Positions 18,959 through 64,000 of a DNA stretch of 64,000 nucleotides are shown one piece after another (position 1 is the stretch's first letter; every line of letters starts with the position of its first letter). The stretch spans positions 3,423,801 to 3,487,800 of the forward strand of contig OZ316891.1 of the NCBI GenBank assembly GCA_973895155.1, given 5' to 3'. The DNA is from Marsupella aquatica. Taxonomy: Eukaryota; Plantae; Marchantiophyta. The position numbers were made by a program, and so were the translations under genes. The notes beneath the pieces were generated by a model that was not told the DNA's origin, did not search any database, and saw nothing but the letters and a program-made list of their open reading frames with translations.

Positions 18959-19311
18959 CTCCCATCCGGGGCCGGGTATGTGGTTCCTTCTGGACTATAT
19001 ATGCCTATGTTAGCAGTAAAGAGCTCATTATCTGTATTGCGCTCCGAATTGACAGTTCTTCCAAGTAGAGTCTTTCACATCTGCCTGTCCGCTCATGTCA
19101 AGGACCCGGGTCTACAAGGCAACCAAAAATCTGCCTCAGAGAGTAGAAGCTTCAGGCACGATATGACCTTGGTGTTGTAGTGGCCTAGTTAATTTCTTTC
19201 AGAGTTTCGGGTACTTGAGAGAGTTTTCCAGAGATTTGTGCTGTCTCCTTGCATACTTTGACAAACTCACAAACGCATTTGGATCCAGAGAAAGTTCAAG
19301 GCAAGTAAGTT

Positions 19312-27400: not shown

Positions 27401-28799
27401 CATTTCCCTTAGTGAGGGCCCAGGGGGAGAAGAGATCATGTGTAAGAAATTTCCCTTTTTAGAAGGCAAACTTTTAAGTTTTTATGGACAGGTGGCTCAC
27501 TTATATCCAATTTATTGAGAATGTGAATTTTCATTAAAGTCTACTAAACTCTGGTAACTATCACCTCAAGGAATCCAAAGATATAACTTACAATAAACCA
27601 ATTAAACTTCTTTTGACATGTAATAACAAGGTCAAAACCAGATTATACGCTTGTTTTTAACACAACCTAGGTTTATGGGCAAACCATTTGCCAACTTTTA
27701 GGAATTTAATTTCAATTTAAGAAAAAAAATCTTGCAACTCTTTTAAGAATTTCTTTTAATCTTACATGGAAAAGAAAGGGAAAACCAAAATCACAATATG
27801 ATTCAAAGTCTATATCTATAAGCTCGGGTGACACAACTTTTGTGTAATAGACAAGGTCCACATTTTTATATTGATTAAGAAGTTGACTACAAAAAATAAT
27901 TATAATTTGAAAAAACCCTGGGCCCCCAGCCTTTGTAAACTAAAGAGGTATACATGCGTACACGCCCCTCCCTAGTACCCCTTATTATTTTTGGAAGTCT
28001 ATAAAAATTTCTCTTGTTATTCTTAAAAACTTAATTTTGGAGAATAAATCTGCCCCTTTGAGATATTATAATTTCACATTTTACACCATTTATGAAAGCC
28101 TTATAAAGTTATAAATTCATCAATGTGTGGAAACGGTTCTAAAACTGACGGGAGTGTTTTGGAAGGGTTTTGGGTACAAACATTTTTGTGTTCGTGACCC
28201 TTTAGCCCCAAACTTCAACTTTGGGGCATTTCTGAACCACAGGGCAGGTCAGGGTTCAAAAGCTCCAAAGTCTTAAACTACTCTGAATCATAGATGTTGC
28301 AAGCATAATTATATGTCATATACACATGTTCCAATAAAGGGTGGTCACAAGGACCAATCCTATTGTGACGCGTGTCACATCCATATTACATCACCTTTTG
28401 AAGCATATTAACTTGGGCGACATTTATATAAGCCTATATTAGTTAGAAAAGGTTCTTTGAATAAAACCATCCCTCGATATTCCTAAGCCAATTATAAAAA
28501 TTAATCTCAAATCAGATATTTTGCACCCTTCATCCATTTGCACGTCCAGCCCATTATTAATAATGTTGGGGCCAGGGGAAAAACTTGGGCTTTCATTTAA
28601 AAAATGCAAAATCAATCATATAGAAGGTTTGGTTTTCTTATTTTTCCAATAAAATTTAAAAATATTCCTAAATAAATTGTAATTTTTATTTAGAATATTT
28701 ATTAGAATTTTATTAAAAATCCTACAAACCTGGCTTACCTAGTTTGGCTGTAAAGCCTTATTGAATCTGATGAGTTACACGACGGACTAGTCTAGCAAG

Positions 28800-35406: not shown

Positions 35407-37299
35407 TTGTATTGGAAGTATATCGAGCAGAATCTGTTCACTGGCGACTTTTGAGGGTTTACCTGAAGACGAGCCATTGAAAGTTCAACAACCCGAAGTA
35501 CAAAGTGAGCTTTTAGATACTAATGTGCTTAGTAATACTTTCAGTGTTGAAATGTAGAACTGTGGAAGCTTATGAGTGCCAATCGGGACAACAGACAAAA
35601 TCGTTGATAGTTTTTGAGGGAGGGCAACGCTCGAGTGCACAGGTGCAAATGTCTAACACAAACGGTTTCCGCATGGGGATGCCTGGTCTACAGTGAATAC
35701 CCGGACATATATAGATTAGGAGGAAGCTCTCAAGAGATATATAGACAAAGTATACCCACATCGGGATGCCTGATCAATATTCAACATCAGACCTCGACGA
35801 GGAGTTTTCAAAGTGAACGTACAAACAAATTAATTATACGTGAAACCTCCCAAAAGACTCATCTGGAAGCAAGACACAGACATGTACATCTTAAGGACTC
35901 CAATCTCCTCCGTTTAGGGTTTAGTTGATCTTGTTTCTGAGCCAAGATCACAAAGGGCGTGTGAACAACTGATAGATATCCAGGATGAATTAAGTTAGTG
36001 TGGTGGCCACATTCTAGCTTCATCTTGCAGTCGATCTGACCATGCTTGGAGACTGTGACTAGAAAAGCACGATCGAGCCAAGAAACCATGCATAGTTATC
36101 TCAACCAAAACATTATTATAACAAGTTTTGTTCCACGAATGATGATTACTGAACAATTGCTTCAGTTGATCGACTCTGCGGGAAGGAAACTAAGACTGAT
36201 CGACCGGCTAAAATTGCTTCAGTTTACTATGAGGAAATCAACAAAGAACTGATGGGCTACGAACCCGTAAAGTGAATAGGAGAGAATTAGTACGTACCGG
36301 AGTGGTACCGTCGGCGGTTTGAAGTGAAGAAGTCAACAACTGCGGAGAATGCACAGTCGGGAGCAGGACGGTTAGCAAAGAGCGATGAGACAGTGCATCT
36401 GTAAACTAGTGATCCCTTACACACGCACTGATCAGACTGGACCAGAGCGGAAAGGAAAAGGGTGACACAATGTGATGAGCTATGAATGTCAAGTATCACT
36501 TTCATATGTTAGAATGGATTGCTTTAGGTCGACAAGCACCCTGTGGAAAGGAAATAGAGCCTGATCGGTCACGACTATAAAGGGTCAGCCTTTCATACCT
36601 TAGGAACGGTCGAAGTTGAATGTGATATGAGTATTTCTTCGTCTTCTTCGACTCACAAAACCGTTGACGCTGTCGAATGAAATGAATAAGCCAACAACTG
36701 CGAATGACTCCACGTCCGGAGCAGGGATCGGCATGTAGAGGAAAAAGCTGATGAAGAAAGAAATGGAAACGATTGGCTTATACACTTCAGTAGCACGTCT
36801 ATAGACTCGGTCACCCCTCTGTCAAGTTATTTCTACTTCCATACGACCAAGTTTTTCTAGACTGCTTTTTAGGTTTTTGATAAGACCTAGCGGAATCATG
36901 TACGCTAGACCTATTTCGACAGAAGAGAACACCATTTCACCCAGAATTGTGTTATGTAGGTTTTTTATTGAGGACTCAAGGCAAAATCATCGATTCTCTG
37001 TCGCGTCCCTATCTGTTAGCAGTCTGGATGTCCCCATTTTTTCTCTTAGTAGGGTGTCTCAATAGTGAGCTGTGGGGCCATCCAATAAAACCGGCTTACA
37101 GGACCCTAATAAGGGAATTCAAATATGGGGGGAGGGAGGTTTGACCTGCCCCAAAAGCTAGGGTTTGCTCTAAAGCCCGTTTCAGTTATGCTAACCCTTC
37201 TCCTTCCGGCTCGGTAAGCCCTAGCTGGTTATCAACATTGGTGATACTTAGATAACGCACCCGTTGGGCAGCTTGTTGTTAGCATTGCAAAGTTGTTTA

Positions 37300-39359: not shown

Positions 39360-40246
39360 ACATAATCTGACCAATCATCCTCCGCTTCTTGTTCTGCACA
39401 ATCAACACAATCCACATTAAATGCAGTCAAACTAGCAGGTTAATAATAAAAGCCATATACAAACAATGCACACTCAATCTAATAGTTAGTACAGGGAATT
39501 ACCTGTAGCTTCAATATCTTCACCTCAATGGAATCCTTAAATAGATATAAACCGTACCACAGTGACTGGTTTTGTCTGCCCAATTATACGATGTGCCCGG
39601 TCCACAGCTTGGTCTTCCACACAGGGATTCCATCACTCGTCTACTAGAATTACATGATTTGCGCAAGTTATGTTGAGACCTGTAGATGTTGCCATCAAGG
39701 AAAGCATAATGATGCTCACCTACACAGTCCATAGAAAACATTGGTCATTACAATTATAATGTGAAAGTATACATGAATTAGCTGTCTGAAAATGGACAAA
39801 TTTGACTCACCTCAGGGGTCCTACTGAACATGTGAAGCACCTTGTCTCTCTTTTTTGGGGCCATTGACCCATCAATCCTTCCGAACTGAAGGCCAGCCTT
39901 TGTGAGGTCTGGCTCAAGCAAGTCCAGACATTTTGTCCATTGCAAAAACACAAGAGCCTTCTCTCTTGGATGACATTGTTCCTTGGTGAGTGGCTTTGTG
40001 TATCTTTTGGGATACCCTTCAAGTATGTCATGACTGCATCAAATTTGGCAGAAGAGGTTGCCGTTGGAATGGTTTGAATAAACTTCAATCCATCTAGGAC
40101 GTCACCATCACCCTTGGTGCTTGACAAGTCTACGTTCTTGTCGAGTTTTGCAACGCCCACCTTTCTCCTACAATTGGGGAACTTGCAAGTGAAGATTTCC
40201 TTCCGCCCTCAAACCGCGCAAGACCCACAGTTAAAGTGGCCACAGC
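39360..40246 (-). pseudogene. RAD5/RAD16-like SNF2-RING helicase pseudogene, 3' part (RING C-half + HELICc)
   Basis: CGHFNCGSC, SSAKFDAVM, EKALVFLQWTKCLDLLE...[43 protein letters not shown]; in-frame stops and a frameshift. Confidence 0.85.
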
Positions 40247-40279
40247 CACTAGTAGAAACCGGGGGGTATTTAGACCCCA

Positions 40280-40640
40280 TTAAACGACTATTCAATACCG
40301 TATAGGACTTGGAAACGACTGGGAAGGACTCTAGTCCTTTATAGGACTGCGAGTCGTATGTTTTGTTACTATAATCAACTGAGTCCTTTATAGAACTGGT
40401 TTATAAGTCGTTTAATAGACTGGATTTTCAGTCTATTTTAGTCTTTGTGTGGGTAGCTTTGGTGAGTCTTTTTCAGTCTTTTATGGGCTGCGATGGTGAG
40501 TCGTTGGGAACAACTCAAAAGGTTATGGAGGGTAGTCTTTAAATATACTTTGTGGGTTTATAAAATGACTAAAGTAGACACTTTGTGGGGGTTTATAAAA
40601 CGACTAAAGTAGACACTTTGTGGGGTATGTACAAGTCTTT
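40280..40640. repeat. CACTA subterminal repeats (GACT/AGTC motifs, short tandem duplications)
   Basis: Dense GACT/AGTC motifs in both orientations; similar cluster at about 57110-57270. Confidence 0.7.
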
Positions 40641-41147
40641 CATGTCAACTGGAAATGAATGATGAAGACCCCACTATACTACTTGGAATGAACTCACTCT
40701 TGTGCACAAATAACACATTTCATTCATGTTTTATTGTGTACTTGGAATGAACTCACTCTATAAGGTCACCATTCACCATGTTAACATTAGAACCTCACAC
40801 AAATTTTCAGAAAGCCATCTTCTATACCATGTACACTAATATGAATTCACAGATTCAAACATCATAGACTACAAAGAAGGTCACAAAGCATTCGTCTATA
40901 CCATACACACTAATACTGAATTGATACAAAACAGATTCAAGTATCATAGACAATCACCATAGAGCCATAGTTTGACATCAATCACTTGTTTCATACATAC
41001 AGAATTCAGAAATATCAATGTCACACACAACGGCTCCTTCATCCTCTTTACCAAATGGAAAAATTGGTACAGATATTTCTTGGATTTTTCCAAGGCAATG
41101 TCAAAATGTAACACAATTCACATGATTCTATCTACACTTGTATTCAG

Positions 41148-44100
41148 TCACTGCAGACTAACACACTCTGATGGCCAGAGCACAAGAGATCCTACTGCAT
41201 CTGCAATTATTTCTTGAGGTGGATCATCGTCTCTATTCGGAAATGGCAAATTACAATCAGATACAATCATTGTAGTCAACAACACTACTACATGGTCATC
41301 CGGGACCACTTTGCCATGGAATTTAGCATGATCCGGTCGCAAAATGCCTGTACCCACACATACCTGCGAGTCATTCTCCCATGATAGAAGATTATGGACT
41401 GGCTCTGCTGTGGCTATCACCTCCACCTTACCCTGGCTGTTTTTCTTGGCTTTCCTGGGTGGCTTATACATGACATTATTCATACCTTGGTTGCGAGTCA
41501 TGACTTTGGCACGAGTGTTTTGTGCTGGTGATCGAGAATTGGCTACACTCTTCTTCAAAGAATCTGCATCCATATTTGACACTTCCGATTGTGTAGCAGG
41601 ATTTCCCTGCGACATCATCTCAGTATCTGCTAACATTGTACTTGCTTCAATTGAAGCATCTACAATCTTACTTGCATCCAATGTTGCTCCCAAGTTTCGA
41701 CGTCGCTTCACCCTGCTCCCACTTGGTTGAGAGTCTGTCAACTCTGCATCAACTACAATTCAATGCATTGTCCAACATAAGTGAATCACTCATCACATGT
41801 GCGCCATGTACATGTCACCATCCACAAAGTTGTCACTATCTCCTTACCATTATGAACAGCCTTCTTCCCCTTCTTTGCCATTGCCATATCCTCCATGTCT
41901 GCTTCTGCTGATCAATAAACAGACCACAAGATTCAAGTTCAATCTATTAACCACTGAATTGTTTCTCAACAATGGTAGGAGAGGAATTTAAAGCATCAGC
42001 TTACCTGATACCTCCTTGGCTATGGTCACTGAGGCACTGGGCACATCTTTTTCATTGCTCTTTGAATCACCTGATACATCAATCATGATGTCACTTCAAT
42101 TCCCAGTTTATCCAACCAATTCTTACAGAAAAGATTACCTCCAACCGGCTTAAGCTTCACAAAACTCCATGCACTTTTCAAATGTAATGTACTGGATCAT
42201 AGCAGGTTACCTGTCTCAGCAACCTTTTTGCCATTCTGCTTACCGATTACAGGGTCCAGGTTCTCTGCCTCCACTCTTCCTGCATTCAAACCATTCACTC
42301 AATTCATGAAAACTTACTTCTAACATTTGAACATAGGACACAATGAACAATGGGCCTCTCTTGTTTCAAAATCCTCATTGCATACCTGTGTCAGATTTGC
42401 CAATTCCCTTTTTTGTTAACAAGGGCACACTTTGTACAATGTTGCCCTCATTGTTTGGTTGGGAACCACCCAATTTTTCAATCACAAGCTTGAAATTAGA
42501 TTCCACTGATGCAAGAAGGTTCGCTACAGATGCCTCCACAATATCCAAACGATCAGCCAATTTACTTTCCACTCGAGGGAGTCCACACTCTAATGACTTC
42601 AACCGTTCAGACATCTTTGTGAGAGTTGTAACAGTTCCCTGTCATAACACAGTTTACATATCTCAGATAATTGTCCCCAAGAACTGGTTGCTTACTTCCT
42701 ACTACAATTCTTTCTGATGCTCAAGGCCAAATAGTCACAGAACATATAGAATTACAACATAATCACCTGTTTGGAAGTCACACTTGTCACCTCACTCCTT
42801 TGTTTCATGAACTCCTCTCTCACTTCTTGTGCTGATGGTTCTTCACCTGTCAATTTCTTCTGCAGTCCACATCAACATACATATGAATGAAACCAAGTGT
42901 TGATTGTCAATGAAAATGTAATAATGGTAGCAAGATGATAAGTTTGAGGCTTACTATTAGGCATGTCACTGCCTTACCAATTGTTCTTTCACTGGAGCAT
43001 AACTTCCTCTCCCAGCCTGTGAAAGGTGTTTCACTTTGCCTCGAGCATTTGACATCAGTTCACTCTTGCTCTGTCCAGCCTCCGACATGAACCCTTTGAT
43101 TAACCGTGTCCATTGATCCAGTTCCAATGATGGGGGTGGTGGCATTCTCCTGTTAGAACCATTGTCTATCCACATCCTTTTCAACCTATGCCTCTCTTGT
43201 TTCAAAATCCTCATTGCATAATCTGATATGCAATCTTCAACTGGGCCCTTACCATCATTACCAACATAGTCCCACCGTTCAAGAATGTCCTTGCAGATAG
43301 CAGCCCAATCAGCTTTGTTCTGACTCCTAAACTCTGTAATGCTCAAATCTAACCAACGCAATACTTCTCCTCTTAGGTCAGAATGCCAACGGTTCTTACC
43401 ATCACATGTGGGAGTTATCCAACCTTCGGAATTCACTTCTACTTTACCAAATTTGTTACTGTCTCCTGCCTTGGTACTCCCTGAAGCGCTACTAGGTGTC
43501 CCTCCACGGCCTGGTGTCCCCCCACGGCCTGGGGTCCCTCCACGGCCTGATCTCCCCCCACGGCCTGGATTGCATTGTCCAAACCTCCCTGGAGTCCCTG
43601 CACATTTACAGGATCCATTTACAGTCACTTACATTAGGTAAGTATGAATCATAAATCCTGCTGCCAAATATACACTGGACTTCAGAGCAATTCTGCAATG
43701 ACCAAGTTACCTCTCCCTTGGCGCATAGATGGTTCTGGACCACCTGTCCTATTGCTTTGTCTTGATGAATTAGGGCCGTTTCTCCCGCCTGTGAATGATT
43801 GCCGCCTATCTGAACGTGGATGGCCTTTGTTGTTTTCGTGATTGTCCCAATCAGAGTCTGCATACCAACAGGTACATGCCACACTCATGGACCTGTAAGA
43901 TAAACTCTTTGCCCTAGCTACACATCAGATAAGTCCATATTGAGCTAAATCTCTACTACCATCACAAAATCACTAGCACAAGGCACTTACTTGTCCAATC
44001 ATCCTCCTCACCTGTCCATTGCCCTCTGTACCCGTCTCTACCACGCTCTGGGTGTTCATATTCATCCCATCCATCTTCTGCTCCATCATAGTCATCATCA

Positions 44101-44333
44101 TAATTATCAGGCGTCCCTTGCCAATAACTCTGGCTCCTTCTAGGGTATGGATTATGTGATTTCTCTCTAGCTGCCCACCTACCTGGGACTTGATGAGGGC
44201 CCTGTGCATCCTGCACAGGTGCATTTTTCTGTGAGCCCCCTGCATCTGGGTCTCCATCCATATCCAATCTTTCCTCTTCACCCCACTCTCCAAGCCCCAT
44301 GTCTGTCTCCATGTCATCACCCTCTTCCCCCAT
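41148..44333 (-). CDS. CACTA TnpA-like (ORF2, Ptta/En/Spm Transposase_24-like) multi-exon gene
   Basis: Exon ORFs 43962-44333, 43682-43888, 42966-43628 (W..L...F.SE..Q.KSE..S.ARGK.KH...AGRGSY), 42375-42614, 41148-41741 (C-terminal GTG..FHG..VP....VV...LPFP...DAVGSLVLWP); GRGGTP repeats. Exact exon borders not all resolved. Confidence 0.75.
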
Positions 44334-44510
44334 AGCTTCTGCACAGCACCCACAACCAAACAGGGAGAATCAGCACACTAAATTCAAAGTATCAATCAAT
44401 TTCATGCATATCCAACTATCCTAAACATCATTCCAGGCAGCAATTCCCGTTCTGTGACTCTGTGCAGGTAGTCATCCTCAACCTCATACTTGCCAATCGC
44501 CAGCTGTTGC

Positions 44511-47500
44511 CTATTGCAAATCATCAACCTCATCATATTCCATTTGCCCAGGTTCATCATATGTCTCTCTCAATGTTAAGGGGATGTAGTCAGTCCCTGC
44601 CCGAGTTGGAAGTACAGTCTCATGACTAGGATGCTCGAATGCAGCATGGTCATCCAAACTGAACTCTACTTTACTTCCATCCATCCGCCTGTTCCGTGCT
44701 TGGCTATGGCATACCACCCTCCAGCCATGTGACTCCTCCACATCTGCAAAGAAAGCCTGTTCAACTTGGCTAGGGAAAACAAAAGGCTCAGACCATTCTG
44801 GTACTCTGGACCTAAAATTGGCCAACAAGAACCCATCATGATCACGCTTCATGGTGGCCCTTGGTCTCTGCCACTCTGATTTCACCCATGATCCCTTCAT
44901 CAATATCACTGGGACACTTGTGTTACCATAATTCAACACCCAAATGTCGGTCAACTCCCCCACGTAACCCATCTTCATCCACCCCCTCTGTTCTTCAGAG
45001 GTTCTCTGCTCAAACACAGAAATCAAACCACAATCATATGATACACAATGGTCACCCTGCTCATCCCTCACTCGATAATGATTTCCATAAGCTCTCATCC
45101 GTTTGTAGGTCAGAATAGACAATCGTGGTGGCACAGATAGAAGATACAAATCCTTCTCCATATCTGGGTGATGTCTACTATGCTCTCGAATTGTCACCCG
45201 AATCCACTGCTCGAACTGTGGGAAGGGATCCTGCTGCCCAGAGTGTGCAGCTTTTTGCATATCATATTCCCTGCAATATGAGGTACAGGCATAGTTAGGT
45301 CTAAACAACACATGACAACCTAAGATCACCCTTGGAATAGACAAGAAGCATCACAACAAAGGCAAGTCAATTCAATCACTCACCTCCACCATGGTTGCAT
45401 AGGCTCTGTGTTTGCCAGCACATATGAATGAGCCTTGTCTCGAATCGCAACAGGCAGCTGAACAACACGTCCCACACCTTCAACAACCTCGCCACTCACT
45501 CCATCATCTTCACCAGATTTCCAAACTCTTGTCATAGCTTCACCAGACCCAGCCATGTACTCTGTTAGGAATCCCAACGTCTCATCCTTAATGTACCCCA
45601 ATGCCATGGAAGCCTCTGGCCTGTAGTATGTTCTCACATGACCTTTCAACAACTTCATGTATCGCTCCATAGGGTACATCCATCTGGTATTGACTGGCCC
45701 ATACTGCCCTAGCTCTTCTACCACATGGATTAGGAGATGAGTCATAACATCAAAGAAAGCAGGGGGGAAGTATATCTCCAAGTCACAGAGGACATAAGCA
45801 GCATCCTGCTTCAACTGCTCCAATCCTTGGGGATCCCACACTTTCACACATATACGGCGAAATACATTGCACAGTCGAAGAATGACATTACGGACTGGTT
45901 TCTGCATGAGACCTCTGAGGCATAGGGGCAGAATGTGCTGCATCAACACATGGTAGTCATGTGTTTTCATACTGCCAAGTTTATTCTTTGTAATATGCTT
46001 CTTGAAGGCACCAGCATAGCCAGAGGGCACTTTCAGACAGCTCAATCTATACAAGAATGTCTTCCATTCATCCTGTGTGCACACATAGGGAGCTTGGAAC
46101 TTGAGAAGTACATTGGGATTGCTTGCATGGGGCTTCAACCAAAGGTGAGGGCGAATCCCCTTCTGTTGCATATCAGCTCGAACTGCTCCTGTATCTTTCT
46201 CACCCGACAAGAACTTCAGCAAGCTCTCACAAATATTTTTCTCAATGTGCATGACGTCCACATTGTGTTTGCTGGGCTCGAATTCCTGCACTCCACAAAG
46301 CAAAGAATTCAACAACAGAAACACTAATTAACCACATAGGAGGATTGTAACCAACATCAATCCACCATTGCTCCAATCTAAAATTGCAATCATACAGGGG
46401 CTGGAGGCTAAGTACATTACCCTCCAGTACTCCAACTCCAAGTCCATCAAGGTCTGTCTTTTCACACCGTGTTTCACCACTGGATCCTCAGGTTCTCGAT
46501 CAGTGGCACTTCTCTTGTCCCAATCAGCCTTCCTGGCTGCCCACCTCAGGACTTGCTCTCTGGTGACCCTCTGTGGTGGGCCACGAAGCTCTGTTTTGTT
46601 GTTGAAGTGTGCAATTTGAGACCGTGTGTGCCTGTAAGGATGATCAACAGGCAGATACCTTCTATGCCCCTGAAATTTCATACTGTGCAGGGCATGCGAC
46701 CACTCACTTGTCACATTTTTCCCACATGGTGTGCACCCCACATAGCCCTTTGTCACTCGTCCAGATATGATGCCATGGCCTGGGTAATCTGCTATATCCA
46801 GCAAACAAATTGCATGCAGTCTAAAGGGGCTGGGTCGAAGAAGCCCCTTCAGAACATCATGGGTTAACACCCCTTCTATCCACAAAGTCTTCCACTCTTC
46901 CACTGCTGGAGCCAACATGATATCTATGAATTGCTCGGTCACAGAAGCTGGTCCAGGGATTAACAGCACCATCATGACAAAAAACCTCTTTGTAGTCATC
47001 CATGGGGGAAGGTTGTAATTTAGCAGCGTAACCGGCCAACATGAATAACGGTTGTTTTTGTCTCCAAATGGGTTTACTCCATCCAGTGATAGACCAAATC
47101 GAAAGTTCCGCTTCTCTGCAGCAAACTGTGGCCACCTCTCATCAACAAATTTCCAATGGTTGGAATCTCCAATGTGACGCTGCAGGCCATCACTGCTCTT
47201 GTTATCAGGAGTCCATGTCATCAGCTTGGAAATGGCAGGGCATCTAAACAGACGTTGTAGTCTAGGAATGAGAGGAAAATGACGAAGAACCTTGGCAGGG
47301 TGTGTACATTTCCCTACATTCTTGTACCTGTGCTTACCACAATGAGGGCATGTCAATTTATCTGCATGCTCTTTGCGAAAGAGAACACACCCATCAGGGC
47401 ATGCGTCAATAGACACATAGTTCAGCCCAAGGTTAGACATCAATTTCCTAGCCTCGTACATATTTTTTGGAATTGAATTACCATCTGGTAACACATTTCG

Positions 47501-48211
47501 GCGCAGGAAGGTCAACAACTCTGTCACAAATATATTGGGAACATTGTGATTGCCACAGATGTTCAACAACAACACGACAAAACCCAGCTTGGAGCAGTTC
47601 GACCCCTCGTAGATAGGAATGCAAGCTTCTTTGATGTGTTTTGGGCCCCCAAACACCCACTCCCTCTCTGCTGCACCTTCCCCAATGTCAAAGTCAGGTT
47701 CAGCTTGGCCGTCGCCAATGTGTGGCTGCGGTTCATTGTCCTCTTCTGATTCCACTGTGTCGTAAAAAGCATCAAGGTCTTCAAAAATCTCTTGAACCAT
47801 TCTTGGGACATCCATCCCACCGTCCTCAGTGACTGCCTCTGCATCTCCATCTTGGTCATCCACGTTCTCATGTTGGACCCCAGGACCATCCTCTGCACAG
47901 TCTATGTCCTGCTCTACGTAGTCTCTACGCCTAGCTGTATTAGAATCCACAAAGTCAGCTCTCCACTCTTCATCAGAGGAGTCTTCTTCTGCTGGTACAT
48001 TCCAAACCCTCCACCGAGGGTGCCTTTCATGCCGCAGCAGGTGAAGGTGCACAGTGTTCAAACTCAATGACTTGAATCCTTGGCACTGTGTGCATGGGCA
48101 TCTCATCCTCCTACTCCTACCTTGGGCGGCCCGGGCTTGTTCACGCATCCACAATTTAGAATCATGATGCCTAATCCTAAATGGGTTGTGAAGAGGCAAC
48201 CTTGGAGCCAT
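44511..48211 (-). CDS. CACTA TNP2/TnpD transposase, 1150 aa; exons 48211-46421, 46285-45384, 45270-44511
   Basis: MRCPCTQC, IDACPDGC, RFGLSLDGVNPF, YSCWPV, YNLPPW, DYPG, HNVDVMHIEKNICES, FPPAFFDVMTHL, WMYPMERY, EPFVFPSQVEQAFF. GT-AG introns join an open frame with no stops. Confidence 0.93.
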
Positions 48212-48538
48212 CACTATACACACGCACTCAGCACCCTGTCATTTTATTATGCAAGTGAAAAATACACTTCCTGTTAAGGATTTCACCCCCGACTGTACTT
48301 GCCAAAATACGTAACGTTCCAAAAAAACCAAAAAACAAAAAATATAGGTGCCTGAGTCATGTACCTATTCTCAAGTGAATGAGACAAAATTCCTAAATGT
48401 TTGAGGATGTCAACTCCTCCGCTGTCCTCACATGTACTGCCTCTGCACGTACATCCATGACCATATCAGAGTCCAATCATGTATAGTCATAGACACAGGT
48501 GCCAGGTGCGAGACCGGGTGTGAGATGTCCTCATCTTA

Positions 48539-49072
48539 CTACCACATCAAATACGGATACCAATCTTGTTGTCGATGCCACTCAGCCCTGAGGTACTCAG
48601 GCATGTACATTAAGTCATCAAGGTCTAAACCCTGCTCATGCCATGGTGGTCTTCGATCCGTGCCTACAAGCAGTGGCAGCAGTGCCCTCCATGGTGCACA
48701 TGTTGCTACCAAGTCCCTCCACTGGGTACTAATTAGTCTATATTTGCAGATATCTTGTGCGCCAGACACCACAAGAACCCTCGGCCAGACATGTGTAAGA
48801 ACTATATCATCTGCCAAATCAGGCAACAAGGAACCACCTACAGCATCGTGCTTGTCTAACTCATCTGCTGAAAAGTAAATGTCCTCTTCCGACTGTGCAT
48901 CCTCATTCACCACAGCATTCACAACACATCCAAGGTCTGCAGGCATTATCTCGGATGGAGCTACACTCTGTCTGGTTACCAATCCACACAAGTAAGCCCA
49001 AGCAGTAGCCATGCACGATGCAACCCGTAGGAGGACCCTACACAGGGCCTGACGGTCTGGAAGAGGCAGCAT
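48539..49072 (-). CDS. CACTA cargo: F-box-like protein lacking a substrate-binding domain
   Basis: LLPDLADDIVLTHVWPRV...CKYRLISTQWRDLV matches the F-box consensus (LP.LPDD......RV....R.VS..WR.LV); start codon uncertain. Confidence 0.55.
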   Translation of the reverse strand: MLPLPDRQALCRVLLRVASCMATAWAYLCGLVTRQSVAPSEIMPADLGCVVNAVVNEDAQSEEDIYFSADELDKHDAVGGSLLPDLADDIVLTHVWPRVLVVSGAQDICKYRLISTQWRDLVATCAPWRALLPLLVGTDRRPPWHEQGLDLDDLMYMPEYLRAEWHRQQDWYPYLMW

Positions 49073-49248
49073 ACCCACCAAAGTCTTCAGCCAAACAGAG
49101 CCCAGCAAGTAGATTCACAGTCACACCCCACGCAGCAGGAAACAACAATCACTTCAACTGCGACCAACCATGACAAGATGAGTTAGTTCAAGGATCACAT
49201 TTATTACAAAATTGTGATTTATACAAAAATATGAGGGACTCCTACTCC

Positions 49249-50097
49249 TCACTCTCTCCCACCTTTGCTAAGCATACATCTCCGCTGAATCTTGGAGGGC
49301 CAGGCCTCAAAAATATCAAAGTCCCAAGCATTCTGTCGCTTCCCTCTAGCTGCTGATTCCAGAAGCCAATCAGGGGAAAGCACCCAAAGATTGTTGTTCA
49401 TGACAAAATCACGCACTGTTGTCTTAAAGATTTTTCTGCATATTTTCATGTATGACAGACCTACAACATGAGTGGAGGTTTCTGTTAGACTCTCCTCCAC
49501 TGTCCCACCTAGCTCAACAACTATAGACTTGTACAGTCTGCACTTAGTCTCCCCAATTCCTTCTTCTGCAAATACCACACTGAACCCCTTCATAATGGTA
49601 TTTCTCTCCTTGCCATGCTCATTCAATATAGCATCTGCACGCATAGGATGGTGTCCTATGTTGACAACAGGTCCATATTGGACAGAAGCAAAGTTGGGTT
49701 TCTCTGCCGCTGCTTCATAGGCTTCCTTTTCAGCCAAAGCCTCTGCAGTGGCCTCCTCACTCTCCCACAACTCATATTGCTCAGTACTCTGTACACACCT
49801 ATGTTTAACAGAATCGGTCAGCCAAGAGACTTCAACTACTTTTAGACCTTGGTTGGTAATGGCAGAATCAATGAAGGACCATGACCACTTGTTCATCACA
49901 TCCAGCCATGTCCCCGCAACAACATGTGTAGTCTGTGGAGTGATGTCCTTGACTTCAGTCCCATGGAACTCTGAGAATCGTTTTTGTACGATTGGCCAAC
50001 TCACTTGGGTGAACCCATAGTGGCCAGGAATCAAAATGGCTTTGATTCCAGCCAACAGAGGCGGGTGGTCAACATTTGTACGTTTCCTAGAGGCCAT
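49249..50097 (-). CDS. CACTA cargo: tandem BRCT-domain protein (DNA polymerase lambda-like BRCT)
   Basis: Two repeats, each with G....THVV...W(L)..S: TTHVVAG...VEVSWLTDS and LGGTVEESLTETSTHVVG...LSPDWLLES; intact intronless ORF. Confidence 0.8.
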   Translation of the reverse strand: MASRKRTNVDHPPLLAGIKAILIPGHYGFTQVSWPIVQKRFSEFHGTEVKDITPQTTHVVAGTWLDVMNKWSWSFIDSAITNQGLKVVEVSWLTDSVKHRCVQSTEQYELWESEEATAEALAEKEAYEAAAEKPNFASVQYGPVVNIGHHPMRADAILNEHGKERNTIMKGFSVVFAEEGIGETKCRLYKSIVVELGGTVEESLTETSTHVVGLSYMKICRKIFKTTVRDFVMNNNLWVLSPDWLLESAARGKRQNAWDFDIFEAWPSKIQRRCMLSKGGRE

Positions 50098-50697
50098 GTA
50101 CACACGGGCCACCTAATCACTGCAGACCGGAAGATAATGCGTTCACCTGATAATCGGAGGGCCCTTAAAATGCTGCGTTTATAACTTGGTCCAGTCCAGT
50201 CGTCTGGTGAGTCTCTGCTCCGATTCCAAACGGGAGAAATATTGGGACAAACGTACTAGACACCTGCAAGCATGCACTTCATAGTTTGAATATGTGCCTT
50301 CACAATATTGAAGGTGACAAGTGCAATTGTTTTGTGATGCCACATACAGATGTTTCGTATGGGGGCAGACATTCAATGAGAATACAAAATGTTGGTACAC
50401 TTTAAGGGAATTCTCGCAAATTAAATAGCCTTGTAACTTATATGCTCATAATGAGAAGTCCTGATTTAATTTAAGCAGTGTCATGTAAGTCGTGATCAAA
50501 ATGATTGCAGAGTTAAAAAAGTTCCTAGAAGGCTTAAGGGGAGATTTTGAAGGCATGTACCCAGGAACAAGTAATGAACTTAGGGTACTTGTTGCCTAAG
50601 CATCCTCTCCTACAGAGGTCCTTCTTCTCAAAATTGGAATGTCTGCAATCTCCAAGGTATCCACATCAGGTGCACTATGCATGTACATTATTCAGGT

Positions 50698-51378
50698 TCA
50701 AAGCCAAGAAATGTGATCTCTCATGGGAGTGTGCAAAGTAGGATCTATGGCATGGCGATGACAATAGAAGATCCATCGATCAACACCATGTGCAGAGTGA
50801 TCATAGATGTGTCTGTCACAAGCATAGCCTTCTGCTTGACGCTCCTTCAAACAATGAAAGTGCCACATGGTGGGACACCTAACACAGTGGACTATGTCCA
50901 CCCAGAAATCTTCATCGTGCTGACCACATGCCTTGCACTTATGAAGTGGGCAAGCTGTGGCAAGATCGGGCAAACATGAAAAACAAAAGAACCTCACACA
51001 ATATCTGTCAGGGCATTTCCTAACAAGTGGTGGAGCATCAACAGAGCCCTCATAAGACCCCAACTTCCCACACTGTGCACACTTAGCCTGCTTCTCCAAA
51101 CAATCAGTGCACATCCAGCCTCCTTGGTGTGCTGACGGGAGGCCCACCCCTGGACAGTTGTTTTCTGCAGCAAGGTCAGACTCCGGGTTGAGGTGGAAAT
51201 GCCTCATGCAAGGGCCCTCACATATGGCTAAGTCACCACCATCGTCACAAATGGCACAACAATGAGCTGCCTTCTGGAAAATCTGACTTGCGGAGAAGTT
51301 ACTACCATCTGGCCCAACTACACCTGTGTTGCTCACCTCTGTCCCCCGCTTCTTGGCTCGGATTTTAGGGCGTGCCAT
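50698..51378 (-). CDS. CACTA cargo: stand-alone EDM2-type composite PHD-finger protein, 226 aa
   Basis: CAICDDGGDLAICEGPCMRHFH...CPLHKCKAC...CVRCPTMWHFHCL...FYCHRHAIDPTLHTPMRDH follows the EDM2 PHD pattern including the terminal YCxxHxIDxxLxTPxRDH; basic N-terminus MARPKIRAKKR. Confidence 0.85.
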   Translation of the reverse strand: MARPKIRAKKRGTEVSNTGVVGPDGSNFSASQIFQKAAHCCAICDDGGDLAICEGPCMRHFHLNPESDLAAENNCPGVGLPSAHQGGWMCTDCLEKQAKCAQCGKLGSYEGSVDAPPLVRKCPDRYCVRFFCFSCLPDLATACPLHKCKACGQHDEDFWVDIVHCVRCPTMWHFHCLKERQAEGYACDRHIYDHSAHGVDRWIFYCHRHAIDPTLHTPMRDHISWL

Positions 51379-52047
51379 GCCTACGCATGAGACAGATAGT
51401 ACAATTTAGCAGAGTGCACAGACAATACAATTTAGTGCAGTGTACAAAAAGTACAGTGTAGCATATAGACTAGAGTGGCAATTGCTACTGCAATGAAATG
51501 TTCACACACATGTGCAGAGTAGACATACTTTTTGGTTTGTTGAGCCCACACTAAAAACTGATCCCCTCGTACAATAGCTCCACCTACACCTCAATTTTGT
51601 GGCTATGATTCACCAAAGGAGATCTGCAACAAGATTTAATGCATTTGAATCACATATAACAGTCGTGACATGTAAAACAGGCATTTTTTGAACAGGATTG
51701 GTATCAAGCAGTGTGATCAGGGTTGTAATTTATACATCCTAAATAGGCTATGATAGTGAATGAGACAAATAAGTTAGGCATAAATCACTTTTTCCAGGTT
51801 ATCACATGGCCCATTAATTCCAGTCTTTGAAAGGAGACTTTTAAGTGAGCTTGCTAGCCTCTTAAATTAGGATATTGTACTTAGTGCAGCCATAATAGGA
51901 TAAGTTATGTACTGTTGACCCTAAACCCTGGACCCAAAATTGGTCATAATTCAAAATCTTAAGTAAATATCCTCTCTGTTCAAGTCAAAGTGTTAAGTTA
52001 TAGGTCAATGGTCTCTGGTTTGTGCATGCGGTGTGACAAGTGGTCCT

Positions 52048-52497
52048 CTAGAGCGTGTGATCCAAACATGTGTAGACACCAAAGTGACCGGTGGTGGGGT
52101 CTGGGAGGGCAGGACAAGTGACATTGCCAGGCACACTGCAGGATGGCGAGTGGTTCCAGATGATACATTGTGCTCTGTGAAAAAACCGACATCCAAGAGA
52201 ACGGTCATCCAACTCTAGGCCAGAAGCCCTACAGGCAGGACAGTCATATTGGCAACTGTGCACACACCCTTGGGCCCTAATTTGTGGCGGGTCATGTACA
52301 AGAGACAGAAATACCAAGGATGTTGGGAAGGGTGGAGAAGCAGGTACAGGCCGACTGTAGTTGTTCCTGGCAACAACTGGGTACTCAAAGTACCATGCAG
52401 ACTGGGCTGGAAGGATCCCAAGTCTGACATACTCAAGGCGCAACATCTCTGCCTTGCGTGCAAGCCGCACATGTTCAGCGTTGCGGGTCCTCACCAT
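52048..52497 (-). CDS. CACTA cargo: possible Cys/His-rich small protein, 149 aa
   Basis: ATG-initiated ORF co-oriented with other cargo; CVHSCQYDCPAC...CRFFHRAQC...HSPSC; no family recognised. Confidence 0.3.
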   Translation of the reverse strand: MVRTRNAEHVRLARKAEMLRLEYVRLGILPAQSAWYFEYPVVARNNYSRPVPASPPFPTSLVFLSLVHDPPQIRAQGCVHSCQYDCPACRASGLELDDRSLGCRFFHRAQCIIWNHSPSCSVPGNVTCPALPDPTTGHFGVYTCLDHTL

Positions 52498-55400
52498 AAG
52501 TGTTGCTTTTGTGGAGATGTCGTGTGTTCACGTCCTCTGATAAGCACCTTCGATCAACAAGGTGAGCAGGAGCTGTACTTGCCTCACCAACAGCAACCAA
52601 CCTTAAATTATCAGTTCCCACTCACTGTGTCATTCCATTGGTTCCAGCTAGGGGTCACAGTGTAAACATAGCATGAAACACTCCTAATCAACTTGCTTAC
52701 AAACTACAATATCCAGAAAGAGTGAAAGTCTCACCCTCCAGTGAGCAGCAGAGAGGTAGTTCACTAGATGTGTTGATGTGCAGTTAAACCTCCACTATTG
52801 CTTACTTCTGGTGTATGCTGCTCAGAAGAAGACATATTAGTAGCAGCAAATTGCAAATAATGGCCATAAGCAAACCGTGAGAGTTTGCAAAATGCTACGA
52901 CAAATCCATCACAGCAGTGCTCCACAGGAATGAAACCAAGCAAAATTTGGTGACCTCGGCCAATGACAAGGCCAATGTAGTGAACAATCCTTGACCGATC
53001 ATGATATGGATTGGAATTACAATTAGTCAGCTCTTCTTCTTTGTTTTCTAACTCTGGGGGAAATGAGCATGACCAGGGAATTCTCTGAGAAATAGAAGTG
53101 CACAGGGAAAATGAAATTGGCTCATTCAGCTCTGCAAGATGGACCATTGCAGCATACTTGGACAGTTGTTCCGCAATACATAAAATACCCTAACTTACAT
53201 GCAATTGATACAATCTGCTTCTGTTGGCTGTCCTACAGCTCATGGCAGTGCCGTTGGGACAGGGTAAGTGAATATTGCCATAGCTGAAGCACATTGAGCT
53301 TGCAGCAACAAGTGAAGGAGCATGGCCAAAAGCAGAAAAGACAGACAGGTTTTACAAGAAGAAACTAACAACCGCCAATCTGCTCAAATCCGCTGCATAG
53401 ATCAAACCCTCCGAACTACACAGCCCTCCTTTGAAAACAATCCAATGTGCTTTGGCTGGTGGATGACAAGGACTGGGAGAAGAGGAAACGTCTGCACAAT
53501 CAATCCAAATGACGGTACACAGAGACCAGGCACAGAGAGGATTTGTGCTTAGACAAAAACCACAAATTGTAGCATGGGCGCCATAGCATTCTAGACAAAG
53601 CACAAAACATAGAATCTATGAATCTATGACTCATGGACTAACAAAATGATTGGGTAGCATGGCAAAAGGAAAGACAAATTTCAAAATGACAACATGGCCC
53701 GTTTCCACCATTCATTTGACGTTGCTAGGTGTCCGTAAGATGACTGACCCACAAACAATCCCGACAACCTCATCCGACAGACTGCTTTTCTAGTGTGAAG
53801 AAATACATGATTACAAGCAACACCACGCCTCATCCAAGCAGGGAATTGAAAACATAACCATGTCATTCCTATATTGGACAGTGTCCTCTGCCATTGCACT
53901 GCATAGTTGTTATTCCATGTTGGTTGTCAACAGTTTGTTGGCTTGCCACAACCTAGATAGAACAATAAAATATTGTACATGAATACAACAAGAAAAATCT
54001 GCATACAGCGATGGCCCGGTCACTTGAGGAAAAAACAAAACTAAGAAGGCAGGCACACGGGCAACCGAGAAAAAAAGCTAGTGGCGCCTCGCGGAGAATC
54101 CAGAATGGTAATGCCCTCGCCCAGAAGCTTGGGAAACAAAAGAGAAAAAAGCAAAAACGAGCTACCGACCACCGTCTTGACCAGGCCTGCCACAAGGTAT
54201 GGCTGGAGGCTGTGGTCCCCCCCTCAGTAAAGAAAAGGATGCAGGTTGGAGCACGGGGCACAAGGCATGTTTGGATCCAGGAGGAGCAAAACAGTAATGT
54301 CAAGCAGGAAGTGTGGAGAGACCAATCAGTAAACAAAAATAGGGGAGAACAAACATACATCAGCAGCAACAGGAAACGAGAAAGTTGATTTAGGAGGGAT
54401 TGTAGGGAGAGAGCTTTTGGTGGGCTCGGCTGTGCGTGAAATATCGGGAGATAGATGCGCGAGAGAGTGAGGAGGGTGGCAAGCGGAAGACGGGTTGGGA
54501 CTGGACCCTTGGTGCCGGTGGGTAATATATGGGGTTTCAGCAGACTTGGGGCCAGTTTGAGGAGGATTGAGAAGCGCGCACCCCACGTTCTTGGGTGGTG
54601 GTTGGGTGGGGTTTTGTTTGATTGAAGAAGAAATCACCATTCTCTTCTAGAAGAAAGAAAATCACAGGAAATAGTGGACGGGAGAACAAGGCATGTAATA
54701 GAGAACAACAAGGCATGTAATAGAGACAGTGCGCAGCTCAGCTCCGAGGTCACACTTTACGATGCACAGGGGGTCCTTGGTTGCACGTAGGAGAAGGACT
54801 GAATCACTGTGGCTGCTCTTCCGTACTATCGAAGCACCCGGCTGGCAGCTCCGCAAACACTGATCGTAGCTACAATCTCTACACCGTTGATTGAAGAGCA
54901 GCTGCAGCACAGTAAGGAGCTCCCACAGCCTCCCTCTTCAAAGCTCGGTTGACCTAGCTCTACGATCGACGGAGCATGGGCGCCAGACAAAGCACAAACT
55001 GTACCATGGAGCTGGAGAAAAACACAGAGTAATTGAAGCCTAACAATACCCTTCTCAGCTCCTGATTGAATGAGGAAAAACACATTACAAGACACATTGC
55101 AGGCAATAGGATTTTAACAATGAAGTCTCGCCTGTGCTGACAGAATACCTGCTTACAGCCACGCGTTGCTCATCCTCCCACAGTTCGGTGGCACACTATC
55201 CAGATGGCATGACGCATGCCTTAACTTATGACGATTTGCGCAGCTCAAATCAAGTAGGTTGTCCCCACAAAAAGACAGAGGACAACAAAGAAAAGCAATG
55301 TAGCCGTGATGTCTTACCAGCCCTGACAATGGGAGCTTCAAAGGCGGTGCACTATGGCTGAAATGGCAGCACGCTGCTCGAACACTAAAGCAACACAAAA

Positions 55401-55819
55401 CTTGGACTCTCACCTTATGCAACTCCTGGCTTGTATTCAGCTGGCGTTGGCCCACTCTAAGCTCCTGCGCCGCTCCGACTGCCAGTCGTTCTGTAGACGG
55501 TCTGTATCCTCCCTGACTGCAGCTCCTCCCCGCCCCCAGCTCGTCACCCGCGTCTTCTCCCCAATTTGTGGTGAGCTCCTCCTCGACCACAGCACCCTAA
55601 ACTGCTTTGCCCAGCCTCTGATGGCCTTCACGTTGTTACCGATTGTCGCTCCCCACAAAGTCCACAATCCATAAACCAGGCAGATAGTGCGCCCGTAGAA
55701 CAGATGCAACCCGCATGCAGCTTCACCAGCTCAATGGCAGCTCAACAGCTTAAGGGTGCAGCAAAAGGGCGTTGAATAGGTTGTCTCACCTCACCCTTCG
55801 AGAGCCGGTCATTGCAGCA

Positions 55820-56035
55820 TCCCTAAACTCCCGATCCCTCTTCTCGGATTCCACAGAGCCGACCACAAGAAAATGGGAACACTAAACCTCACTGTAGAGA
55901 CGTTCCCACCAAGATTACACGGAAAACCTTGCTCCGATCCCTAAGCTCCCAATCCCATCGAGAGAACACGATAAAACCTTGCTCCAATCCCTAAACTCCC
56001 GATCCCACCAAGAGAACACAATAAACCTTGCTCCG
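55820..56035. repeat. About 50-bp tandem repeat (AAACCTTGCTCC.ATCCCTAA.CTCCC.ATCCC) in the CACTA 5' region
   Basis: Units start near 55923, 55973 and 56023, with a partial unit at 55820. Confidence 0.75.
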
Positions 56036-57303
56036 CAAGTTGGGAATGTGGCGGGATCCCTAAACACATCAACAACCTGCTAAGTGTAAGCAAAGTTGCA
56101 TAACCGGCTTGTTCCCTTCCAACGGTCGCGCGACTCGGGTGTCCAAACGGTACTGCAAGCGGTACAGGCCCCTAGCTTGGGATACCCTTACCAAAGTCAC
56201 TGGTGTTGCCGACATGGTAACGGCAAGATTATCCTGACCCTCCATAAACCCCCTCCATTCACTCAAGTGTTGTGAGTGACAACTTAGTGTAGTGTCGCTA
56301 AACAAATACTTTGGCCTTAGCAAATATCTGTGGTGATCGAACTTCATTAAACCAAACCTCTTTTGGTCACAAATAAGGCCATTTAATGAGTGATGCCCCT
56401 TGTCATCACCCTCTTAATTTATGCAATTACCCCTCCTGAACACAATTGAACGTTGTCCAAATTGCCTACCCTCATGAATAATTTGTCAATTATCTTTCCC
56501 GACATATATGATGTCAATGGACATGATGGGGAACATGATGTCAATGGACATGATGCCAACGATCCAATGGTTCCTAAACCCCCATCCCCTTAACATGCAA
56601 CCCCCGACCCTTGACATCAAACCCCCCTAAACCCCCTTTAGTGAAAACCCAGCCACCCCCTAGCCTTGACATATAAACCCCCTAAACGTCTTCACAACTC
56701 GACTGTGGCCAGACTATCTTTGCAATGCCAAGGGCCATTTTTAGAGTGCATGCCGCTTGCAAGCTCAGGCTCTCAAGATCCTCCCAAGGCAGCAAACAAG
56801 TTAGGGTCCCTAAACATGTTCCTTTACCCTAAACCATTGCGTCACTATTTCAATCGAGTGTTCTTTGCCTGGACAACCCCCTAACCCTAAACCCACACCC
56901 CCTTGAGACCGGTACAAATCTACCTTTGTGCATCTTGGCCTTTTATTGATGGAGTTAGTAATCGATCCCTCCGTAGTCCACCCTCCATGAACCTCACTCC
57001 AAAACCTTTTTTGTCACAAATAAGGCCATTTATTGAGTTATGCCCCTTGCTATCTCCCTCTTTACAGAATTACCCCTCCTCAACATAAGTGAACATTACC
57101 CATGATGTGCTAGACTATTCACCGTTCACAAAGTAGCAAGGTTACTTCTCATAGTCTTTTAGTGAACCATAAAACACTAATAGTCTTTTGTAGTCTTCAA
57201 CAAAACTGGTGCAATGGGTGCGAGTCGTTTCAAGTATGGAAAAAGGACTTAGTGAGCTTAGTCCTATAAGGTATGGTCTAAATTGCCCCGGTTTCTACTA
57301 GTG

Positions 57304-57925
57304 AGCGAGAAATCTGTATTGGACCTCCAACATAATTTGACTGCACAAACAAACGTCCAATGTTACCATTATGAACACCATGCAGGTAGGAACAATCGCT
57401 CGACCAAATTGCCATTCGTACCCCAATACCCCACTCATACCCCAATACCCCACCGCACTTAGAGCTAAGATACTTACCTTGCATTCTGTACAAGCACTTT
57501 GCATGTTGGCTGATTGGAGATCTGCCAATAATTTGATTTGATCATGTTGATTGAGAACATCTCTTAGGAGCGACGCCGTCAGAGTTCTTCTTATCTTCAG
57601 TTGCTTGCAGGAAAGAAAGGCTAGGGTGCACTGCATATTGACGTAAACGGAGAAGTACGGACAACATATTTTGATCGGGAGCCTCCTCGATGCCCTCTAT
57701 ATATTTCTACAACAGGAGAAAGAATACAAGAAAATTAAGTAGGTTAGGATCTTAGATGGGATGCAAACTGAACAACATTGGGTACGTAGTCACTTCCAAA
57801 GCGCCTTACCCTAAATATTGTAGCAATCTGCTCCTGCATATCAAAATAGGCATCACGTTCTGCTTCAGTCCTCCATTCCACTATTACCACCTGAGAGTGC
57901 TTTACCGGCAACTGAAGAATGCCTG
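57304..57925 (-). pseudogene. RAD5/RAD16-like SNF2-RING helicase pseudogene, 5' part (end of SNF2_N + RING N-half)
   Basis: ILQLPVKHSQVVIVEWRTEAERDAY, NMLSVLLRLRQYAVHPSL, CTEC, GPIQISR; joins 40243 in frame after removing the CACTA. Confidence 0.85.
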
Positions 57926-62731: not shown

Positions 62732-63100
62732 GGTCAAGTGCAAGCTAGAGGGGTACTGAAAGGATCTCCATTTTCTCCACCAAAAGGACATAGGTCCTTG
62801 GTAAAAGCAATCACTAGAGGACAAAAAGACCAAAATGTTACATGGAATGGCCAAGATTGTTTTGGTGAGATTGAAAGGTAAGATCTTGCATGCCAAATCT
62901 TTGGAAGTGTGTCCACATATTTCGGAATTTAAGAAGAGTGCCCAATCTTTTTGGAAGTGTGCACAATCTTTTTGGAAGTGTGCCCAACCTTTTTGGGAGT
63001 GTGCTCAGCTAAATCTTAATGACATTTATACTCCTTTCACTCTCCTTTTTGAGCTAGTCCTTGGGGACTCCTTTGGTACCCCTCTAGCTTGCTTTTGACC
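62732..63100 (+). mobile_element. MITE family A, 369 bp, flanks do not form a TSD
   Basis: Near-identical to 11666-12034; left flank AGGC, right flank TCTA. Confidence 0.9.
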
Positions 63101-64000
63101 TCTAGCATTTGAGACTTTGAAGCTTTCCTTATATGTCCTTCAAAGATCGATAAAAGGACTTGTCACGCAACGAGTCACATCATTTCAGGACTCGAAAGGA
63201 CTCTAAAACTTGCATTTTAGACAATGAAATTTTACCAAGGCATGCATACTAATAGAATAATCTTATATTTGAAAACTCAAATATTGACACACACTAAACC
63301 TTTATGTATAGGACAAAAATAATCAGTAATTTTGGCTTATTTAGGGCCATCAATAATAGGATCCCTTAAAAAAGATAAAAACTTGATTTATCTACATGGT
63401 GAGGTAGGTTACACCATGTAAAATAGTCTTGTGAAAAAATTAGACTTAAATGTCTTGAGATAAAATCATGATGAAGCTTTTTCCATGTTACAAAAGTCAT
63501 TTTTCACTAAAAAAACATGTTTTTGAGTCCTGAAAGTGGTTCCTGTGAGGTACACCCAATTGTGAATGAGGCCATTTCAGCTTCTAACATCTTTGAAACT
63601 TCCTTTGTTGAGTCCGTTGTTGAAGACCCTAGCATCTGTGGTCCAAGGACCTTGTCTGCATTCACTTGATACATAGTTTCAATCATTCTAGTGCATTGTA
63701 AACAACAGAATAGATTCAATCATTTAATGTTTTTGACTGATGACTATAATGTCCTATAAAACTAGGCCGGAATGATAGATAGTTCTCTATCATTTTATTG
63801 TTAAAAAGTTAGACTCCTATTTAAGTAATTTCCCCAATCACATTAATTGACTTGGTTTTGCAGTGTCTAGTGGGCTTGCACAATAGTGTTAATTATGCAC
63901 TCTTGTGTACATAGCATTGTGTGTGTATTATGAATGTTGTTTTATGTCTTGAATGGTGTATATCAATGTGAGTTGTGTATGGATGTGTGTACTCATGAAA

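Follow-up and report, generated by a model that had tools for sequence, protein, structure and literature searches.

We describe a complete CACTA transposon from the liverwort Marsupella aquatica that carries, upstream of its transposase, a gene for a protein built of two BRCT repeats. The window analysed here is a 64,000-nucleotide stretch of contig OZ316891.1, and all positions given below are positions in it. The 282-residue protein may act on host break-repair factors as a non-catalytic decoy or adaptor, a tentative reading to which we give a probability of roughly 45%. With no catalytic part in the protein, its anatomy leaves only docking. The nearest solved single domains are ones that recruit repair enzymes to damage, and for this reason we favour a decoy role.

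The element itself is a regular CACTA member; the novelty lies in the accessory BRCT gene. It spans 17,057 bp (40247–57303) and carries its genes on the minus strand. Both termini start with CACTA and are identical over 18 bp, and they were the sole pair to emerge from a scan for CACTA ends. One terminal inverted repeat forms the 3′ end of the element (40247–40264, plus strand) and is followed by short subterminal repeats; the other forms the 5′ end (57286–57303, minus strand). The 3-bp target site duplication AGC flanks both ends (40244–40246 and 57304–57306). Read along the minus strand, the genes begin with a stand-alone open reading frame for an NSD-type triple PHD protein (50698–51378; PHDvar_NSD 1.2e-5, PHD-1st_NSD 3.5e-5, PHD_NSD 0.005, all below cut-off), followed by the tandem-BRCT gene (49249–50097) and a weak F-box-like frame (48539–49072; Pfam F-box E 0.082). 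Then come the TnpD exons, with a Tnp2 (Transposase_21) domain (46328–48211; E 1.3e-59), DUF4218 (45380–46327; E 1.8e-27) and DUF4216 (44511–45350; E 1.8e-5, below cut-off), and last a likely TnpA-like exon (42966–43628; Transposase_24 E 0.014, below cut-off). This domain set is plant-like, and the rest of the window holds no second copy of the element's open reading frames. The initial annotation had called the BRCT protein transposon-encoded, and the gene does lie within a complete element.

Several further features lie upstream of the BRCT gene. The PHD frame lies directly upstream of it and stops where the PHD domain stops. Overlapping Cys/His-rich frames occupy 52048–52665 (159 residues on the minus strand, 148 on the plus strand), with a weak FYVE match (E 0.009) on the plus strand. 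In sequencing run X1, contig depth over 50566–52913 is roughly double the depth elsewhere in the element, so this segment may travel in other elements too. Over 53500–56435 depth is several-fold lower in all four runs and several joints skip parts; the 5′ region of the element seems to vary among copies.

Contigs of run X1, 650–1,640 bases long, match the element with 0–3 differences, which places this copy near a common, probably young form. In the same run, contig depth is about 2,450–2,560 in the bins over the BRCT gene and about 1,830–2,520 over TnpD, compared with 36 at a flank site, where contig depth is not the same as copy number and the runs were themselves found using this very region. 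This is consistent with the BRCT gene being part of a multicopy element, and we give it little weight. Coverage of the BRCT frame in runs X9 and X11 is scant. The sequencing runs listed for the region include no RNA, so they have no bearing on expression.

Elsewhere in the window there are other features of interest. A single-frame, 500-codon MFS transporter gene (33982–35484, minus strand; MFS_1 E 2.7e-38) lies outside the element and has a G+C content above that of its surroundings. It resembles fungal transporters of the monocarboxylate-permease type and may have arisen by horizontal transfer or as a retrocopy. Inverted arms of 384 bp, 98% complementary and 1,210 bp apart (11666–13643), with further copies at 14716–15063 and 62732–63102, probably mark another small mobile element. 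Two related frames about 10 kb apart (18702–20266 and 28793–30619) have internal repeats of about 280–300 bp and encode an acidic repeat protein in which no Pfam family scores above cut-off. Finally, an exon at 3005–3646 (plus strand) encodes an Fn3-like domain (E 5.6e-8) and probably closes a host gene for a GH3 glycosidase.

The BRCT gene is a single frame on the minus strand, running from an ATG at 50097 to a TGA at 49249, and its product begins with a short basic leader. The product matches Pfam BRCT in two stretches (51.9 bits against a cut-off of 21.3, E 9e-14). An AlphaFold model built from 10 aligned sequences contains two BRCT folds, with pLDDT of about 76–92 beyond residue 30, a lower value in the loop 27–30, a helix at 114–131 and a low-confidence linker at 133–164; the orientation of one domain to the other in this model is unreliable (pTM 0.44). 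The alpha/beta fold of the BRCT domain appears both in the models and in the fold searches. Repeat 1 covers residues 13–112 approximately (49762–50061), the linker helix residues 113–131 (49705–49761) and repeat 2 residues 165–265 approximately (49303–49605). The hallmark helix-3 tryptophans and G-G turns (W92, W244, G46 and G198) are invariant in all eight full-length members of the family. Pfam detects no polymerase or lyase domain in this frame or in the frames downstream of it, the next of which are the F-box-like frame and Tnp2. Both of these points, the two repeats (including the repeat-2 peptide that had been singled out) and the absence of a polymerase domain after them, had been proposed from a first reading of the letters and are borne out.

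An in-frame stop lies 5 codons 5′ of the ATG and is followed by a possible splice acceptor; homologues begin at a similar methionine. It is possible, from these signals, that the frame is fused to upstream exons by splicing. On the other side, an AATAAA (49200–49205, minus strand) 44 nt 3′ of the stop codon is a possible, weak candidate for a poly(A) signal.

The protein belongs to a small family. A HMMER pass over 1.84 billion representatives returned 16 proteins at E≤1e-3, ranging from 62 to 313 residues, and cluster look-ups for 10 of these 16 added 7 further members, full-length versions among them. When the window protein and the hits other than P0016 (15 of 16) were scanned against Pfam, every one matched BRCT and no polymerase family was matched. 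Identity of full-length members to the window protein is 18–61%. In some members the basic leader is weak or absent, the first 12 residues containing 0–4 K/R. Word-based searches for homologues yielded 1 hit from 766 candidates, 2 from 5,110 and 5 from 7,997 scored, the last being weak matches to long proteins, none of them named Pol lambda; these numbers are weak evidence of absence. Pattern matches in viral contigs (39, 25 and 52) included no relatives.

Can the BRCT gene be tied to the transposase beyond this one element? In one scan of metagenome sequence, an alignment of five sequences picked out 26 stretches, two of which (L001 and L002) encode relatives. L002 is 7,038 bp long and was located by its BRCT gene alone. 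It holds an intact gene for a 269-residue tandem-BRCT protein that is 25% identical to the window's and ends 375 bp upstream of a Tnp2 frame in the same orientation, with DUF4218 and DUF4216 frames after that. The Tnp2, DUF4218 and DUF4216 frames are 41, 55 and 45% identical to those of the window. L002 represents another branch of the family, its BRCT protein being 51% identical to P0005. The same BRCT-before-Tnp2 layout in so distant a locus points to an old, element-borne accessory gene and not to a freshly captured host fragment. Both the open frame and its place beside Tnp2 are kept in L002 at 25% protein identity. Conserved linkage to Tnp2 rests on this one independent case, one of the two loci, and as far as sequence comparison goes it shows a BRCT gene that has travelled with its transposase over a long time. 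The other locus, L001 (1,404 bp), is too short for gene context. The tandem-BRCT relative encoded at its positions 2–940 is 98% identical to P0022, but an in-frame stop interrupts the linker, which marks it as a decayed copy.

Where did the two repeats come from? Profiles of repeat 1 and repeat 2 match each other with an HHalign probability of 98.8% (E 1e-16, 100 columns), and both repeats of the window protein match the first repeat of BRCA1, not its first and second respectively. The simplest explanation is that one BRCT domain was duplicated, and not that a host pair was captured. In the branch of P0010, P0020 and P0021 the tryptophan-rich helix-2 patch most like that of the window's repeat 1 sits in the second repeat, which suggests a separate duplication or rearrangement.

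The initial annotation likened repeat 2 to the BRCT domain of DNA polymerase lambda. Part of this stands. A four-sequence repeat-2 profile places the human Pol lambda BRCT in row 1 of 66, at 33.2 bits compared with 27–28 for BRCA1 and 27.6 for REV1. The match to 2JW5 extends over 90 residues (E 2.4e-7) and has G-I-G, L60, G-G, W-L and the closing I-F in register. As a mark of Pol lambda, however, the pattern is not diagnostic. Human Pol lambda comes first in one of eight PDB sequence searches and is listed in four. With the full-length profile it is in row 20 of 71 by summed score, in a list that BRCA1 tops, and the scores per domain are about level (Pol lambda 31.1, REV1 30.7, BRCA1 27.6–29.3). 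It falls to row 43 of 57 with the repeat-1 profile and to row 28 of 87 with the merged-repeat profile, behind REV1 (33.8 domain bits). The four single-sequence PDB searches do not list Pol lambda, and their top rows are BRCA1, BRCA1, REV1 and PARP4. Nor do the fold searches single it out. In the VIA structure search PARP4 leads (Z 16.0, rmsd 2.2 Å, 96 aligned) and Pol lambda ranks 22 (Z 11.1, rmsd 2.2 Å, 94 aligned); with the repeat-2 model Pol lambda ranks 44 in Foldseek and is not among the 50 matches listed after VIA re-ranking. No plant Pol lambda appears at E≤1e-3 in the HMMER pass over the 1.84 billion representatives, which sets an upper bound on its similarity to the BRCT family. Our impression, all the same, is that land-plant Pol lambda BRCTs resemble the window repeats more than the human one does.

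The resemblance to Pol lambda, as judged by these sequence comparisons, is thus real, yet it fails to separate Pol lambda from other repair-enzyme BRCTs. What the best single-domain PDB matches (Pol lambda, REV1 and PARP4) have in common is that they are mostly N-terminal BRCTs of repair enzymes. Like Pol lambda (2JW5, 9G9L), the window protein has a basic leader and then a BRCT, and its repeat 2 has G-I-G, K/L/Y and G-G in register. Unlike Pol lambda, it has two repeats and not one, it lacks the Ser/Pro, lyase and polymerase domains, R57 is replaced by K with a contact pair that is not family-wide, and identity in structural alignments is 18–19%. The N-terminal single BRCTs of REV1 and PARP4 match equally well or better in other searches, but the REV1 segment between strand 3 and helix 3 is shorter and neither protein is tandem or transposon-borne. 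A Pol lambda origin of the repeats is plausible.

Human Pol lambda contacts Ku through its helix 1, which sits between Ku70 and Ku80; R57 and L60 are the residues reported to matter most (PMC12056208). In repeat 2 of the window protein, K185, L188 and Y189 (49545–49531) are in register with human R57, L60 and F61, and K in place of R57 is conservative. Repeat 1 has S and I at positions 57 and 60. Across the family, the contact pair (a basic residue at 57 with L, I or M at 60) occurs in two of ten second repeats (the window protein and P0001) and two of fourteen first repeats (P0011 and P0014), in a register counted back from the G-G turn that is approximate where the loop has indels. In these counts the near-duplicates P0013, P0017, P0018 and P0007 were counted once with their partners, the truncated P0006 was dropped, and P0010, P0020, P0021 and P0016 are absent from the alignments used. 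L002 carries E and H at the pair positions. P0004 carries R at position 60, a residue described as damaging there in human Pol lambda (PMC12056208).

Conservation is centred elsewhere. The family-specific residues, each found in at least seven of the eight full-length members, are W64, S72, W73, T117, K124, Y216 and R229. They lie away from helix 1, on the helix-2 region, where W64 and the W71-S72-W73 patch (49887–49879) stand out, and on the linker helix, where T117 and K124 are each invariant in seven of eight relatives. This points to another binding surface. Because the family does not keep the Ku-contact pair and its conserved residues point to a different surface, we consider a strict mimic of the Ku bridge unlikely on these alignments, and we rate an adaptor in chromatin or the transpososome above it.

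That adaptor is the strongest alternative to a repair decoy. In this case the protein would serve the element's own toolkit: its tryptophan patch would bind the transposase, the PHD protein, the F-box-like protein or a chromatin factor of the host, and its role would lie in anti-silencing or transpososome assembly and not in end joining. Conservation of the patch, the linker helix and R229, and not of the Ku-contact helix, fits such a role. A chromatin role also fits the flanking NSD-type PHD and F-box-like frames equally well. There are precedents: VANC and TnpA are described as transposon-encoded anti-silencing accessory proteins (10.64898/2026.08.24.746577), and the Arabidopsis chromatin regulator ROW1/BARD1 is reported to unite a PHD with tandem BRCTs (PMC4316744). 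However, a tblastn search of L002 at E 1 found no PHD or F-box-like match in the 874 bp of upstream sequence that the contig covers or in the downstream gap, and solved BRCT matches are mostly DNA-damage proteins. We regard the toolkit adaptor as a genuine but lesser possibility.

Could the gene have no function at all? Host DNA captured in the Pack-CACTA manner would be a neutral passenger, and CACTA elements are described as capturing host fragments (PMC8978399). The internal stop in L001 would suit a passenger, as would the variants among near relatives. Across four runs, 40 of 72 variant sites on the BRCT frame are listed, and taken singly these are 11 synonymous and 29 amino-acid changes with no stops; the three listed insertions cause no net frameshift. 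Purifying selection among these near relatives is undetected (silent share 0.28 compared with a neutral 0.22, p = 0.25, 40 sites), in a test that is weak because the sites are unphased and subfamilies are mixed. Repeat 1 contains six of the 40 sites and repeat 2 contains 19; none of the sites hits K185, L188 or Y189. At larger distance the picture is that of a selected protein: the window protein and P0001 are 68% and 64% identical in the two domains but 35% in the loose linker. This pattern, together with the open frame and its place beside Tnp2 in L002, argues against a passenger, as does, weakly, the lack of a close host donor in the word-limited homologue searches. We consider a functionless gene improbable.

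A tandem BRCT protein might also read phosphorylated damage-response proteins, in the manner of BRCA1, BARD1 and MDC1. BRCA1 is the sole family that the whole single sequence of the window protein finds in the PDB (all 18 rows, best E 0.11), its summed score is the highest with the full-length profile, and in repeat 2 a W-V-x-S-x-x-W stretch lines up with that of BRCA1. The details do not follow. Both window repeats match only the first BRCA1 repeat, and the spacing between repeats, read from alignments, is 136–152 residues compared with about 119 in BRCA1. We take the phosphate pocket of BRCA1 to be S1655 and K1702 in its first repeat, that is an S/T-G after strand 1 and a lysine on helix 2. 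On that assignment of roles the pocket is missing from repeat 1, where the window protein has Y26 and W73 and the family has the serine in one of eight members and the lysine in none of eight, an invariant tryptophan replacing it. A phosphopeptide reader is accordingly very unlikely. Marginally less probable still is a mimic of the ligase IV C-terminal tandem BRCT whose inter-repeat helix would clamp XRCC4 and act as a dominant-negative of ligation: the long linker does contain a conserved helix and, when the whole model is searched with Foldseek, tandem BRCT chains of ligase IV come first (E 2.4e-11), but that match (TM 0.28, rmsd 23 Å) reflects spacing only, ligase IV is middling by sequence (E 3e-4 to 3e-5 at best) and the repeats look like one domain duplicated.

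We return to the reading we prefer, a decoy or adaptor in break repair. How might it work? We infer that a BRCT of the repair-enzyme N-terminal kind was captured long ago and duplicated inside the element; Pol lambda is the best single guess as its source, with REV1 or a PARP-type protein close behind. The protein would be nuclear and produced while the element is active. It would fill a docking site on host repair factors and bring no polymerase with it; should the kinship with Pol lambda prove right, that site would be the Ku bridge or XRCC4-Lig4. End joining would then be slowed at the empty donor site, more copying back from the sister chromatid or homologue could follow, and the element would gain copies.

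The steps of this mechanism have parallels in other systems. A catalytically dead form of the human enzyme Pol lambda reportedly lowers gap filling and radiation survival, an effect reversed by R57E (PMC12056208); a dead polymerase with an intact BRCT, dominant-negative in human cells, is a precedent for a decoy. For Arabidopsis Pol lambda, BRCT-mediated binding of Lig4 and XRCC4 is reported, as is a role at transposon excision sites (both as cited in PMC4444747). Its N-terminus is described as a 13-residue nuclear localization signal followed by a 96-residue BRCT (PMC4444747), a layout that the window protein shares in its basic leader and first repeat. Homology-directed repair of excision sites can turn cut-and-paste transposition replicative, as reported for mPing in a yeast assay (PMC10288884). 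A more specific history can be told, in which a plant CACTA lineage took the Ku-docking BRCT of Pol lambda, doubled it and long kept it as a polymerase-free decoy that blocks end joining, its contact helix evolving fast against host Ku and cut-and-paste movement being turned into copy gain. We think it doubtful that all of these parts are correct together.

How does the element compare with known systems? CACTA/En-Spm elements are described as encoding TnpD with TAD, Transposase_21, DUF4218 and DUF4216, a TnpA/Transposase_24 protein and sometimes Peptidase_C48 (PMC8978399). The window element resembles them in its CACTA termini, its 3-bp duplication, the order of its TnpD domains and, at the strength of a match below cut-off, its downstream Transposase_24-like frame. 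It differs in its separate upstream tandem-BRCT gene, which is kept in a distant element. The only extra domains named in the available part of that description are Transposase_24 and Peptidase_C48 (PMC8978399), and 'BRCT' is absent from the main text of a 2026 preprint survey of 962 Spm proteins. No BRCT gene carried by a CACTA element turned up in the literature searched, from which most subscription journals and Repbase reports are absent.

The protein shares with BRCA1 and BARD1 (ROW1) its two BRCTs, its likeness to the first BRCA1 repeat and a PHD nearby, as in the plant protein. Unlike them, it has no phosphoserine pocket in repeat 1, a longer spacing and no RING, and the PHD is a separate gene of the NSD type. 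It resembles VANC of VANDAL and TnpA of Spm in being the non-catalytic product of a DNA transposon that would act on the host. Those two are sequence-specific DNA binders with an anti-silencing role, whereas the BRCT protein appears to be a pure protein-docking module.

Even if the role proves to lie in chromatin, the gene would represent a CACTA accessory gene family for which we found no published report. If the protein does damp end joining, it might find use in plants as a small tool to increase homology-directed editing. For the biology of the elements themselves the issue is broader. Cut-and-paste elements gain copies only if the donor break is repaired from a template, and this is usually deemed the host's choice. 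An element-borne gene that consists of repair-type docking domains alone is a concrete candidate for the means by which an element might steer that choice.
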